From the NCBI GenBank assembly GCA_036568285.1, contig DATCSV010000334.1, forward strand, positions 1 through 30,151: a DNA stretch of 30,151 nucleotides, written 5' to 3'. Shown here in pieces: positions 24,422 through 28,777 of this stretch. The notes below the pieces were generated by a model. That model was not told the DNA's origin. It made no database searches and worked only from the letters and a program-made list of their open reading frames with translations. Position 1 is the first letter of the stretch. Every line of letters begins with the position of its first letter. Source of the stretch: Flavipsychrobacter sp. (GTDB taxonomy: Bacteria; Bacteroidota; Bacteroidia; Chitinophagales; Chitinophagaceae). The translations under genes were made by a program, and so were the position numbers.

Positions 24422-24862
24422 ATGCCTCCAAAAGCGAAACACGTAAAAGATGTTAAGCCGCTGCAACTGAAGCAGGCTGCAGCTATACTGATGAAGCGCC
24501 GCAACATTGCTACAAAAGGCGAAATAGCAGCTAAAATTAAAGTGACACCGTATTACTATTCTAAGGTGATAAATGGTGAAACACCGCTGACAGAAGCCTT
24601 TCTCGAAAAGTTCCTGAAATATGCACGCGCCGGTAGTGTCAACGAAATACTGGCCTCTAAGAAGCCGCCAAAGAATATGTACGAAGTAATTGCAGAAGGA
24701 CTGCAGGCGTATATGGAAGCTAAGAAGGTGACACAGGCAGAACTGGCCGGCCACCTTAAGACAGACCAGCAGATACTCAGCCGCATATTACACTGCAAAA
24801 AGAAACTCTTCACGCCTGATATGCTGATAGAAATATTAAGGCTGATAAAGTATAAGATATAA
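24422..24862 (+). CDS. Transcriptional regulator with two tandem XRE/Cro-type HTH domains
   Basis: HTH1: TKGEIAAKIKVTPYYYSKVINGETPLT. HTH2: KKVTQAELAGHLKTDQQILSRILHCKKK. Confidence 0.8.
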   Translation: MPPKAKHVKDVKPLQLKQAAAILMKRRNIATKGEIAAKIKVTPYYYSKVINGETPLTEAFLEKFLKYARAGSVNEILASKKPPKNMYEVIAEGLQAYMEAKKVTQAELAGHLKTDQQILSRILHCKKKLFTPDMLIEILRLIKYKI

Positions 24863-24877
24863 GAGATGGAATTTCTA

Positions 24878-24907
24878 AAGAAGCCCCGGCAACTGCCGGG
24901 GCTTCTT
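24878..24907. terminator. Bidirectional terminator between convergent genes
   Basis: Perfect 13-bp stem AAGAAGCCCCGGC-AACT-GCCGGGGCTTCTT. Confidence 0.9.
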
Positions 24908-24911
24908 CGTA

Positions 24912-25574
24912 TTATTCGGACTTAACAATGCCATACTTTATAGCAAATAGCACCAATCCCGTTTTAGACCTGATATTGAACTTGGTAAATAGAGACTCGC
25001 GGTAGCCATCTACAGTACGGCGGCTTACTTCCATAGCATTGGCTATCTGCTCGTACGTAGGTTCTTTTTCGTCACAAACCAGTTTAAGGAAATCACGCTC
25101 GCGCTGGCTTACCTGGCCGAGTACCTGCTGCCGCTCGTCCAGCACAACTTCATTAGGAGATAGAAGTGCCTTAGCCAACATTTCATTGTGGTAATAGCCC
25201 GTACCTGTGACATCACTTATTGCTTTGCGCAGTACGTCAGCGGTTGAGCTCTTTGGCAGGTAACCCCTGATGCCCAGCCTGAAGAGGTTGATGATAGTGC
25301 GTTCGTCCGTTTCCAGTGTAAGTATCAGTACTGGTACTTTAGAGCCCTTTTGTTTGAGTGCTATCACAGTTTGCGTGCCGTCCATTACCGGCATGGCCAG
25401 GTCCATAATTATCAGGTCGGGCGGGCTTTGAAATGGGTATTCATTGATGAGTTCTTCGCCGTTATCGTACTCGCCTGTTACTTTGTAATTACCCAGGCGT
25501 TCTACCAGGGCTTTTAACCCGTTGCGCACTATCGGGTGGTCGTCTACCAGGAAGATATTTATCGCGTGTGACAT
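24912..25574 (-). CDS. NarL/FixJ-family response regulator (REC + LuxR HTH)
   Basis: IFLVDDHPIVRNGL...IIMDLAMPVMDG...LILT...GIRGYLPK; VSQRERDFLKL...TYEQIANAMEVSRRTVDGYRESLFTKFNIRSKTGLVLFAIKYG. Confidence 0.96.
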   Translation of the reverse strand: MSHAINIFLVDDHPIVRNGLKALVERLGNYKVTGEYDNGEELINEYPFQSPPDLIIMDLAMPVMDGTQTVIALKQKGSKVPVLILTLETDERTIINLFRLGIRGYLPKSSTADVLRKAISDVTGTGYYHNEMLAKALLSPNEVVLDERQQVLGQVSQRERDFLKLVCDEKEPTYEQIANAMEVSRRTVDGYRESLFTKFNIRSKTGLVLFAIKYGIVKSE

Positions 25575-25577
25575 GAT

Positions 25578-26348
25578 TTAGCTCTCTGAGAAGGTAAATA
25601 TACTGCCTTTGCCGGTAGCCGCTGTTATATTCAACGATACGCCCGCCAATTTAGCCCGTTTCTGCAGGTTGTGCAGGCCGGACCCCTTGCCGGATGCCAA
25701 CACCTGTTCTTTATCAAATCCCCTGCCGTCATCTTTTATCTCCAGCATGAAGCTGTTGCCACCCCGCATGGTGATATGGATGTTTTTTGCCGTGGCATGT
25801 TTCAGGGCATTGTTCAGCACTTCCTGCAGCATCCTGAATATCATGATGCGCTTTCCCTTGTCGAAGGACGGTTCTATACCATCTGTAGTCCAATGTACTT
25901 TCAGCCTCCTGAGCTGCGACAGCCTGTTCGCTTCTTTTTCTATGGCGTAATTAAGCCCTTGTGTTTCCAGGTAGTCGGTATTGAGGCTGTGGCTGAGCAG
26001 GCGCACCTGGTCTATGGTATCACTCAGGGTATTATCAACAGGTGCCAGTTTCTGAGCTATTTCTTCGTTGTCCAGTTTTTCCTGCTCCAGCTGCAGCCTG
26101 ATGAGCGTGAGCAGTTGGCCGATGTTGTCATGCAGCTCGCGGGCCACATTAGTGAGCACCTGTTCCTGTACTTCATTTTCTACGATGCGCAGTTCCTTTT
26201 CATATTCCACCTGCATCTGTGCTATCTTCACCTCCTGCTGCACATGGCGGCGGTTGGCCAGTATCATAATGATGATAACACCGGCTACCAAAAGTAAGAT
26301 CAGCATAGTGCTGACGGCAATCGTAAGTACAATATCATTCTCTAACAT
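25578..26348 (-). CDS. HisKA_3-type sensor histidine kinase with one N-terminal TM helix and no sensor domain
   Basis: H box ARELHDNIGQLL; N box FRMLQEVLNNALKHA; G1 DDGRGF; G2 GSGLHNL. Start taken as ATG 26348 (MLENDIV), overlapping the upstream gene by 14 nt; the track's start at 26372 is an alternative. Confidence 0.93.
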   Translation of the reverse strand: MLENDIVLTIAVSTMLILLLVAGVIIIMILANRRHVQQEVKIAQMQVEYEKELRIVENEVQEQVLTNVARELHDNIGQLLTLIRLQLEQEKLDNEEIAQKLAPVDNTLSDTIDQVRLLSHSLNTDYLETQGLNYAIEKEANRLSQLRRLKVHWTTDGIEPSFDKGKRIMIFRMLQEVLNNALKHATAKNIHITMRGGNSFMLEIKDDGRGFDKEQVLASGKGSGLHNLQKRAKLAGVSLNITAATGKGSIFTFSES

Positions 26349-26988
26349 AAGCTCTCTTAGCCTGGCGGCCATAAAGATAGAAAGCTATGGCGACTAATGC
26401 GTAACGTAGAATTGCAGCAGCGAAATTGATCTTAAACAGCTTGCCAGCCAATTGCATATTGTTGCTAGTGAGATAGTTCATTAATCCAAATAATGGAATA
26501 ATCGTCGCATAATAGATAATGATTGCCATCGCTATAAGAAACAAAGGCTGTTTGTATAGTTTTTTATGGTTGAAAATTGAATTGTCTATTAAAAGGACTA
26601 AATAGAAAATAATATAGAAAATTGCGTTGGTAATTACAGTCCAATTGTTGAATACATTAATACCATTTACTATTGTAATGATAATCCATACTATTGTTAA
26701 ACACGGTATAAGATACTTGACAACTTGCCTAATATTTGAGCTTGTAAGTAATAACCAGCATGCACTGCCTAAAAGCCACACTTCTATAACGGTATAAATG
26801 TTGTACAACAGTACATTATTATACCCGGCATACTTTTGAACTGCCCAGGCTACAATATCGTTGACAAATGCCAAAAAGACTTGCAGTAGTAGGAGCTTGT
26901 ACGGCAGGGCGAGTTTGTTTATGCAGTAAAAGCCTGCAAGAATGGCCAATAATTCGAATAAAGAAGTAGCAACTGTATAAGCCTGCAT
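26335..26988 (-). CDS. Uncharacterised 7-TM membrane protein, candidate detached sensor
   Basis: Seven hydrophobic segments by eye (about aa 3-23, 32-50, 59-81, 93-110, 116-134, 149-170, 184-207) with intramembrane polar residues (E12, D44, YN..TVIE, N..R-Y). Its stop overlaps the kinase start. Confidence 0.8.
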   Translation of the reverse strand: MQAYTVATSLFELLAILAGFYCINKLALPYKLLLLQVFLAFVNDIVAWAVQKYAGYNNVLLYNIYTVIEVWLLGSACWLLLTSSNIRQVVKYLIPCLTIVWIIITIVNGINVFNNWTVITNAIFYIIFYLVLLIDNSIFNHKKLYKQPLFLIAMAIIIYYATIIPLFGLMNYLTSNNMQLAGKLFKINFAAAILRYALVAIAFYLYGRQAKRAYVRE

Positions 26989-27009
26989 GGCTTTGCTTTT
27001 TTATTCGAA

Positions 27010-27804
27010 TTATTGAGCATCAACAGCTGGCTGGATGTAAACATTACAATTAGGTGGGCACAGAGACGAATAATCCGCCCCCTTATTATGAAACATACTT
27101 ATGTAGGTGTTATTATCCAGCATAGGATTGCCGCCGCTATCCGATAAATAAACTACCAACCCATGCGGCCACTGTACATGGCTGTATGCGGGATTGTCCT
27201 GGGTATAAGAGCAGGCTGCAAAATGCACACCGGCATTTTCGGGACTGCCGTTCTCGCTATACATCAGCTTTATTTCCGTAGCCCAGGGCAGTACCAGGTT
27301 TTTTACAAATTTATGCGGGCCATCTGCTAATCGTTCCATTACAGCTGCCTGGGGTTCTGTTTTGTAGAAGAAGCTATCCAGGTACATCATCCCGAAAAGC
27401 TGTTCATCGTTGGTTACGGAAAATACTCCGTTATTTATCTCGTACCATTTGCAATTAGTGGTATCCAGGTCGTAGATAGCCTCTGCACCGGGTGGTACAG
27501 GCTGTGCAGACGGTACCATACGGCACAGCTGCATGCGCAGGTATATTTCTCCCGGCACGGGTGCGAAACAGTGTACAAACCTGAGCGCGACCTCCGCCTC
27601 CGGAGTACCGGAGGTATTCACATAGTCGGTCACTGCGGCCTGCAGGTCATTCCATTGCGCGTTTATTACATGGCCACCAAAAGACGCCTCTGCATGTGTA
27701 TAGTAATAATGCAGGTCGAAATTGGCGCGGCCATTCATATATGATTCGAGGCTGATGACGCGCGGGTCGGTTGAATTGTCTCCTATCTCTATTCTTACGG
27801 GCAT
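27010..27804 (-). CDS. Hypothetical soluble protein ending in a CPPNC motif; first gene of the 7TM-HK-RR operon
   Basis: 264 aa from ATG 27804 (track start 27831 is an alternative). No signal peptide. DYSSLCPPNC near the C-terminus (motif at 27046-27060). 21 nt upstream of the 7-TM gene. Confidence 0.8.
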   Translation of the reverse strand: MPVRIEIGDNSTDPRVISLESYMNGRANFDLHYYYTHAEASFGGHVINAQWNDLQAAVTDYVNTSGTPEAEVALRFVHCFAPVPGEIYLRMQLCRMVPSAQPVPPGAEAIYDLDTTNCKWYEINNGVFSVTNDEQLFGMMYLDSFFYKTEPQAAVMERLADGPHKFVKNLVLPWATEIKLMYSENGSPENAGVHFAACSYTQDNPAYSHVQWPHGLVVYLSDSGGNPMLDNNTYISMFHNKGADYSSLCPPNCNVYIQPAVDAQ

Positions 27805-28023
27805 AGCAGTTTGTTTGAGTGTGTGCCACAAAGTAAGATATTTCTGTATGACTTAACAAGCCCACCCGTGAAAAATACCCCCCTTCATTTGCACATATTC
27901 CCGTTGTACTGTTATTAAGCGTTCTGCACTTTTGTATTGCGGTCAAGAAACAGTGTTTGGTAAAACAACCGCTGATAATAAGAATTATCCTCTTTACCTG
28001 TAAACCCGTCACTATGAGGCAAA

Positions 28024-28632
28024 ATGAACATGCGATGTATGATAAGGATTAGCTATACCGGCGGCAACGATAAGATAGGAGCAGCAGTGAGGAATGTCAA
28101 TAAAATGTTTGCACATGTTGCCTTCCTGGATGCTATTTATAACAGTAAAAATTTTGACATGGCGACGATTTCACCCCAGGAGATAACAGACCTGTTTTGC
28201 AATACGGACCTGGAACTGACAGTTGACACCTATTGGCCCTTGCAACTTTCCAGCATGGCTGATGCCTATGACGACAGGCTGAATCCGACGGTAATACGCC
28301 TGAACAGGTTGAAGCTGAACAGGCCGGTACACAGCATATGCAATACCCTGGTGCATCAATGCGTACACGCCCTGAACGCCTGCTATCCTTCGCTCTACTT
28401 CGGCCATGGCGACAACGACCCTGAGGGTAAAGAAAACACAGCCCCTTTCCGGATAGCCGGGCTGGCACAACAGATAGTTGCGCGGGATAAAAAAGTGGTG
28501 CAACCCATGTTGCATGAGGAGTCCTGCAATGTACAGGCAACTGATGGGAACCACCGGCAAATCCAGGAAGCCCTTTACCATGGAGGCATTTTCTGCATAT
28601 ATGATATGATGAGCATACTGGAAGCCAACTAG
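28024..28632 (+). CDS. Zinc metalloprotease-like protein with HExxH changed to HQxxH
   Basis: IRLNRLKLNRPVHSICNTLVHQCVHALN...FGHGDN: a zincin-like helix plus a third His, but codon CAA (Gln) at the catalytic Glu position. Confidence 0.6.
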   Translation: MNMRCMIRISYTGGNDKIGAAVRNVNKMFAHVAFLDAIYNSKNFDMATISPQEITDLFCNTDLELTVDTYWPLQLSSMADAYDDRLNPTVIRLNRLKLNRPVHSICNTLVHQCVHALNACYPSLYFGHGDNDPEGKENTAPFRIAGLAQQIVARDKKVVQPMLHEESCNVQATDGNHRQIQEALYHGGIFCIYDMMSILEAN

Positions 28633-28651: not shown

Positions 28652-28777
28652 TCATTTCACTACGAAATACCCCAGCAACAACCAAGCTATACCCTTAGCC
28701 AGGAAGAAGATGAAGCCCCAGACACCGATTTTCTTCAGCCATTTCATCAACTTGTTTTGTTTGTGTACCGCTTCCAT
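28652..28777 (-). CDS. 41-aa membrane microprotein (not in the ORF track)
   Basis: MEAVHKQNKLMKWLKKIGVWGFIFFLAKGIAWLLLGYFVVK*. Its ATG overlaps the upstream TGA (TGATG), indicating translational coupling. Basic amphipathic stretch followed by a hydrophobic stretch. Confidence 0.75.
   Translation of the reverse strand: MEAVHKQNKLMKWLKKIGVWGFIFFLAKGIAWLLLGYFVVK

Follow-up and report, generated by a model that had tools for sequence, protein, structure and literature searches.

A candidate split-sensor two-component cassette in Chitinophagaceae with a Cys-Pro-tailed protein and a stand-alone heptahelical protein as putative input

The window analyzed here, a 30,151-nucleotide (nt) stretch of Flavipsychrobacter sp. 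DNA (contig DATCSV010000334.1), comes from a soil Chitinophagaceae bacterium and carries a four-gene operon that encodes a protein with a CPPNC motif near its C-terminus (the tail protein), a protein with seven transmembrane helices (7-TM), a histidine kinase with a single transmembrane (TM) helix, and a NarL/LuxR-type response regulator. With confidence evenly divided, we propose that the four proteins form an undescribed split-sensor two-component system in which the tail and 7-TM proteins together make up the input unit; no description of such a four-part cassette was found in the literature searched. The genes, in order of transcription, and the hairpin that follows them are:

27010..27804, minus strand: gene for the CPPNC-tailed protein, 264 amino acids (aa), leaderless (open reading frame, ORF)
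26335..26988, minus strand: gene for the stand-alone 7-TM protein, 217 aa (ORF; AlphaFold2 (AF2) model)
25578..26348, alternative ATG at 26372, minus strand: gene for the one-TM HisKA_3 histidine kinase, 256 aa (ORF; Pfam)
24912..25574, minus strand: gene for the NarL/LuxR-type response regulator, 220 aa (ORF; Pfam)
24878..24907, no strand assigned: hairpin with a 13-bp stem (9 GC pairs) and a 4-nt loop, between the regulator gene and a convergent helix-turn-helix (HTH) gene

A first-pass annotation of the window had described four co-oriented, tightly packed genes closed by a 13-bp terminator, and the ORF and hairpin coordinates agree with this: the tail protein and 7-TM genes are 21 nt apart, the 7-TM and kinase genes overlap by 14 nt (38 nt if the kinase opens at the earlier ATG), and 3 nt separate the kinase and regulator genes. 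The T-run of the hairpin is weak on the operon strand. Comparison with an orthologous locus gave a ratio of nonsynonymous to synonymous substitution rates (dN/dS) of 0.04-0.12 for each of the four genes, which indicates purifying selection and therefore that all four are real genes. Because the 7-TM and kinase ORFs are separate in every locus, and because the 7-TM family is a stand-alone one, a single sensor kinase split by a frameshift is ruled out.

Exchange and co-conservation of the tail and 7-TM genes

Near-identical strains differ by a joint exchange of the tail and the greater part of the 7-TM gene. A contig from a different sample (L003) matches the window with 0 mismatches over 27085-27745, the tail-protein core, and its kinase and regulator genes are almost identical to those of the window at the nucleotide level and 100% identical as proteins. 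From 27084 to 26395 the same comparison gives 5-21 mismatches per 30 nt, and blastn alignments break there. Delimited against this contig, the exchangeable block is:

26395..27084, minus strand: tail codons ~241-264, the 21-nt spacer and 7-TM codons 1-~198

The 7-TM proteins of the two alleles are 59% identical, and an alignment of public contigs confirms the replacement, placing 643 nt where the window has 651 nt from 26419 to 27071. The window allele is present in a second sample among the public contigs, and the closest database relative of the L003 allele has ≤64% identity to it. In run X4, considered for a possible third allele, the contigs break off. The only part of the 7-TM protein to fall outside the swapped block is the C-terminal extension of its seventh helix (TM7), AFYLYGRQAKRAYV. 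A second, older replacement was found in locus L040, where the kinase (86% identical) and regulator (90%) are accompanied by a tail-protein core at 59% and a 7-TM protein at 40%, the neighbors of the replaced part being 86-94% identical; dN in this comparison is 4-8 times the kinase and regulator values. Positive selection was not seen within one allele type, for which dN/dS is ~0.1.

Two minor features of the exchanged region and its surroundings may be recorded here. The GC content over 26001-27000, which covers the 7-TM gene, is 0.40 versus 0.47-0.50 in the flanks, and this trough lies inside the exchangeable cassette. The comparison with L003 also shows a small second variable patch in the intergenic region at 27835-27953, with 13 mismatches in 27895-27924; it lies immediately upstream of the operator-like repeat described below, which is kept.

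The first-pass annotation made its interpretation depend on co-conservation of the four genes, and this was borne out. Among 21 Chitinophagaceae loci encoding the long tail protein, compared together with their flanks, the order tail protein, 7-TM protein, kinase, regulator is kept in 20, with the first protein down to 23-28% identity. The 7-TM gene is duplicated in two of the 21. Some loci (L031, L039, L049/L071) have two or three tandem 7-TM paralogues ahead of one kinase. The long tail protein itself is narrowly distributed, being found in 16 of 400 genomes of its own family, in one of 400 other Bacteroidota genomes sampled, and in nine of 151 genera, the window's own counted.

With the 7-TM profile as the only query, the protein was found in 27 of 400 Bacteroidota genomes, and in 20 of 179 genera (again counting the window's own). 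In about 20 of these 27 loci the genes directly after the 7-TM gene encode a short HisKA_3 kinase with one TM helix and a NarL regulator; in six other loci, from another family, the next gene encodes a one-TM kinase of ~500 aa that belongs to a different class. As read from these gene neighborhoods, the core of 7-TM protein and one-TM kinase recurs across Bacteroidota, and the occurrence of the 7-TM protein beside one-TM kinases of two classes suggests that it is a portable partner of one-helix kinases.

The 27 loci were found without reference to the tail protein, and in 19 of them the immediately upstream gene on the same strand encodes C-P-x-x-C near its C-terminus. As a background, the genome from which the window comes has 4,986 ORFs that reach 100 aa, and only seven of them encode the motif in the last 30 residues. 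The upstream proteins vary in length (103-310 aa) and in export class (signal anchor, lipoprotein signal, or none), and have in common only a short core consisting of a G-[IV]-R-[IY]-Y-[FY] strand and the next hairpin. On this comparison of sequences the C-P-x-x-C tail of the upstream gene is the single feature to accompany the 7-TM gene across Bacteroidota, and the data support a functional connection of the tail with the 7-TM protein. The window's own genome contains a second, divergent cassette (contig C340, 2579-5989), in which a 166-aa lipoprotein-type protein (ending ...CPANCPPSG...) is encoded together with a 7-TM protein of 217 aa, a one-TM kinase and a pair of NarL-type regulators; a third regulator gene lies upstream. 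This cassette supplies one of the seven ORFs with the motif in the genome, and was missed by the 7-TM profile at E ≤ 0.001.

Proteins, operator and proposed coupling

The window's tail protein starts with the MPV sequence common to all homologues and has no export signal, as the first-pass annotation had stated; that annotation had also placed CPPNC at the very end of the protein, whereas the motif lies 11 residues from the C-terminus. The 36 database relatives are 53-98% identical. Residues H78, C79, C198, H214, C249 and C253 are invariant in the homologues, and C94 and H239 nearly so; further invariant motifs are WPHG, FHNKGAD and C249-P-P-x-C253, and inside the clade the tail is fairly conserved as C-P-P-x-C-N-x-Y-I-x-P. 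The AF2 model (predicted local distance difference test score, pLDDT, 80) has two similar alpha/beta halves that make up an internal duplication. CPPNC sits in a low-confidence, disordered loop (240-252), after which the final strand repacks into the domain. A VIA fold search gave weak similarity (Z ~6) to duplicated domains of the PCNA/beta-clamp type, which has no functional meaning, and Foldseek found no match in the PDB and only uncharacterized relatives in the AlphaFold Database (AFDB). Neither the window protein (at E ≤ 1) nor ten diverse homologues matched any Pfam or NCBIfam family.

That the next gene encodes a 7-TM protein was confirmed by its AF2 model, which shows seven helices joined by short loops with a pLDDT of 96. 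Lys and Arg counts across 104 homologues, read by the positive-inside rule, place the N-terminus outside and the C-terminus inside. In VIA-align the model matches class A, B, C, D and adhesion G-protein-coupled receptors (GPCRs) and LYCHOS with Z of 12-14 over ~200 residues; in Foldseek it matches GPCRs and proteorhodopsin with TM-scores of about 0.5-0.58, at E-values that are non-significant. The modeled protein is thus a GPCR-like heptahelical bundle, a likeness that concerns the fold only. The AFDB clusters that match the fold consist of same-sized uncharacterized proteins, and longer PAS-containing proteins are weak fold matches only. No Pfam model had a meaningful match among 104 diverse family members, and in particular none of the 104 matched the 7TMR-DISM_7TM or 5TM-5TMR_LYT models. 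Membership in an enzyme or transporter family unrelated to signaling would have told against a receptor; no such family was matched, and since the best fold matches are receptors only, this objection does not apply. The AgrB, CPBP/Rce1 and ICMT families, too, resemble the protein in neither sequence nor fold.

The polar positions conserved in the 7-TM family (E/D44, N58, N63, E69, W101) are found mostly in the outer half of the bundle, and the cytoplasmic end of TM7 carries R195, Y196 and the invariant TM7 extension. Database relatives number 22 at 35-100% identity, and a search of 1.84 billion representatives with the 7-TM profile returned at least 2,417 clusters at 50% identity. The best 150 of these 2,417 clusters all contain proteins of about 150-230 aa, so that none of these is fused to a kinase; the 7-TM/kinase fusions for which the first-pass annotation had suggested a search were not found among them.

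The kinase was described in the first-pass annotation as having all catalytic boxes and a single TM helix, and both points hold. It consists of ~7 residues, one hydrophobic helix (the only hydrophobic segment) and the HisKA_3 domain, with no input domain, and the H box (HDNIGQ) and the N, G1 and G2 boxes are readable in the translation. Pfam matches to HisKA_3 (5e-10) and HATPase_c (3.5e-12) are above gathering scores, as are those of the regulator to Response_reg (4.3e-25) and GerE (6.8e-9); the receiver residues DD...D...T...K are likewise readable, and kinase and regulator thus qualify as a HisKA_3/NarL-type two-component pair. The nearest NCBIfam models for the kinase are MctS, UhpB (4e-26), NarQ and LiaS, all of them far under cutoff (64 bits versus a cutoff of 450 for LiaS). 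The PADLOC anti-phage defense models gave no match save a marginal one to the HTH region of the regulator.

Alignment of 16 upstream regions from several genera revealed two features ahead of the operon:

27865..27903, minus strand: operator-like imperfect inverted repeat, CGGGAATATGTGCA, 6 nt, GGGGGGTATTTTTCACGGG
27829..27859, minus strand: putative Bacteroidota-type promoter, TTG ... TACTTTG, proposed from conserved columns

The GGGTATTTTTCACGG core of the repeat is nearly invariant among the 16 regions, and some genera have a perfect inverted repeat, CGTGAAAAA/TTTTTCACG. The promoter was assigned because its columns fit the Bacteroidota consensus, TTG / TAnnTTTG, and the repeat lies just upstream of the putative -33 element. 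No RNA run was found to contain the locus. From its position and conservation the repeat is likely the operator of the NarL-type regulator. The phosphorylated regulator would then act at this repeat, and probably also on a divergent zincin-like gene; that it autoregulates the operon in this way is a proposal we hold at even strength with its negation. A search of the window's own genome with the operator core found, beyond the operon, only a different repeated motif, and the C340 cassette has no clear operator copy. The motif GGGTGTTTTTC[CA]CGGTTGCGGGGG, which precedes small lipoprotein-like genes on contigs C96 (three copies), C44, C73, C213 and C243, resembles the operator core yet differs from it, and may represent a family of promoter or regulator sites.

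In the proposed split sensor, the GPCR-fold 7-TM protein would be the sensor that the kinase lacks, coupled to it through the invariant C-terminal extension of TM7, and the Cys-Pro loop of the upstream protein would be the cognate, allele-specific partner of the 7-TM bundle. The loop might serve as an attached or locally delivered ligand, with its disulfide or reduced state, or its presence or removal, setting the output of the kinase. We consider it probable that the 7-TM protein provides the kinase input, and lean slightly toward an action of the tail on the 7-TM protein. More doubtful is a bolder version, in which a prokaryotic GPCR-fold receptor, separate from the kinase, reads the short Cys-Pro disulfide loop of its partner in many mutually exclusive allele pairs for recognition of kin groups or of self and non-self. 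To our knowledge, peptide-type or kin-specific signaling is essentially unknown in Bacteroidota, and a system of loop/receptor allele pairs exchanged by recombination would, if real, be the first pherotype-like signaling described there.

The signal source of sensor-less ("intramembrane") kinases is a standing question, for which the cassette offers a compact, widespread and testable case. Its assets are a separate heptahelical receptor candidate, a partner recognizable by nothing but a five-residue Cys-Pro loop, and a conserved putative operator that could drive a reporter; the natural allele swaps are ready-made specificity experiments, and the 7-TM protein would be a GPCR-shaped receptor in bacteria whose candidate ligand is genetically linked to it. 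Both the 7-TM family and the tail-protein family lie outside Pfam and NCBIfam.

Related systems and alternative explanations

Several characterized systems share part of this design. In UhpC/UhpB/UhpA of E. coli, a separate polytopic membrane protein signals to a HisKA_3-class kinase and thence to a NarL-type regulator; UhpC, however, is a 12-TM homologue of major facilitator superfamily (MFS) transporters and UhpB has a multi-TM domain of its own, whereas in the cassette the partner is a 7-TM protein of GPCR fold, the kinase has one helix, and there is a third, tail-bearing protein. In the LiaFSR and VraTSR systems of Firmicutes, the operon likewise encodes an accessory membrane protein that controls a HisKA_3 kinase of the intramembrane type, whose outside loop is minimal, and the regulator is of the NarL type. 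LiaF and VraT, however, show no relation in sequence or architecture, are not hypervariable, and have no Cys-Pro tail partner; neither upstream protein of the cassette matched the LiaF/VraT family in Pfam or NCBIfam at E ≤ 1. The ComQXPA system of B. subtilis has a similar order of cytoplasmic protein, signal element, membrane sensor, HisKA_3 kinase and NarL-type regulator, as well as a polymorphic block that runs from the end of the first gene through the sensor while kinase core and regulator stay constant. This is an analogy of pattern only: the cassette's sensor is a separate gene and not the ComP N-terminus, and its first protein matches neither ComQ (a polyprenyl-synthase-like enzyme) nor ComX and has no terpenoid-synthase-like fold. 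The agr system of staphylococci also has specificity groups that arise from a joint swap of signal and receptor, but its kinase is of the HPK10 class with a fused sensor of 6-7 TM helices and its regulator is LytTR, unlike the one-TM HisKA_3 kinase and GerE regulator of the cassette, and Pfam gave no match to AgrB or AgrD. In the fused modules 7TMR-DISM and 5TMR-LYT/BtsS-LytS a heptahelical bundle similarly feeds a histidine kinase; these modules are Pfam families joined to the kinase, whereas the bundle of the cassette is a separate polypeptide.

The interpretation in the first-pass annotation, of a detached receptor with a tail partner, is thus supported in part by co-conservation, the receptor-like fold and joint exchange. 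Several observations weigh against the split-sensor proposal. Both ends of the exchanged block lie in the most conserved motifs of the two proteins (FHNKGAD and AFYLYGRQ), which are also the places at which diverged alleles can recombine, and the tail could therefore have been carried along as a by-product; joint exchange is thus suggestive, and not proof, of co-adaptation. One locus (L034) has the first two genes only, with neither kinase nor regulator, and the Cys motif is absent upstream of the 7-TM gene in eight of the 27 loci. A simple external-ligand role for the window's tail protein is also awkward, because it carries no signal for export, whereas the polar residues conserved in the 7-TM protein face outward; several of the tail protein's homologues are clearly exported. 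Complex prediction with the 7-TM protein, kinase residues 1-110 and the tail protein scored 0.00, which the tool reports as no evidence either way.

Exchange of tail and receptor in otherwise identical loci, together with the many deeply divergent 7-TM alleles, resembles the signal/receptor polymorphism of agrBDC and comQXP, and invites the explanation that a Cys-Pro peptide is cut off, released and sensed by the 7-TM protein of the same allele, the alleles forming groups without cross-talk. The kinase and regulator are of the same classes as ComP and ComA, and an autoregulatory operator is likely, as this explanation would have it. We nevertheless consider it unlikely: the operon includes no processing or export gene, the neighboring zincin-like protein lacks the catalytic Glu in 14 of 14 homologues, the 264-aa product is no mere leader but a well-folded and strongly conserved domain, with its last strand packed into the fold of the AF2 model, and the tail is rather conserved within the clade. 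An alternative in which the tail is not the ligand is that the 7-TM protein responds to an unrelated cue, such as membrane state, a lipid or a small molecule, and that the CPPxC protein is an accessory regulator or an output, possibly a thiol or metal switch; LiaF, SaeP/Q and LiaI/H are models for such accessory or co-transcribed output roles. The leaderless window protein is rich in invariant Cys and His, the eight loci without the Cys motif retain the 7-TM protein and kinase, and three same-genus loci abut thioredoxin, rhodanese, peroxiredoxin and TauE genes, all of which would fit. We rate this alternative as rather unlikely, as neither the window nor other genera have the redox neighbors, what is conserved beside the 7-TM gene, in proteins that differ widely in kind and export class, is the motif and not the domain, and hypervariability of the pair is unexpected for a generic stress sensor.

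The strict adjacency of the tail and 7-TM genes, the orphan pair of L034, and the conserved acidic and polar residues within the membrane would also suit a 7-TM protein that is a membrane enzyme or exporter (of the AgrB, CAAX-protease or ICMT kind) and that modifies, cleaves or translocates the tail, with the kinase reading the product or the envelope state. Against this stand the lack of resemblance to AgrB, CPBP/Rce1 and ICMT, the best fold matches, all of them receptors, and loops too short for an active-site domain; the kinase, moreover, would still be left without an input. We therefore hold an enzyme or exporter to be very unlikely.

Neighboring genes

The gene divergent from the operon is:

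28039..28632, plus strand: zincin-like gene with a degenerate metal motif, HQCVH (weak SprT-like Pfam match)

It adjoins the cassette in 14 of the 21 long-tail loci, and its product has zincin-like neighbors in the Atlas. The homologues conserve H-[QGAS]-C-[VI]-H, FGH and NTAP; the catalytic Glu is present in 0 of 14, and the motif is never HExxH. The Glu is replaced by Q, G, A or S, and the Cys inside the motif is invariant. HQCVH looks like a conserved non-canonical metal site, and not a recent inactivation or a sequencing error.

On the other side of the operon, a double-HTH (Xre-type) protein encoded at 24422-24862 on the plus strand is 98-100% identical in L040, L074 and L075, where its neighbors are 64-90% identical. 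Other same-genus loci lack this gene and have thioredoxin, rhodanese, peroxiredoxin and TauE genes after the regulator. The double-HTH gene looks like part of an inserted block of the type HTH, lipoprotein, type IX secretion system (T9SS) cargo. Finally, a 41-aa ORF at 28652-28777 on the minus strand, directly after an ABM-domain gene, is also called in four related contigs (L003, L007, L072 and L074) and is therefore probably real.

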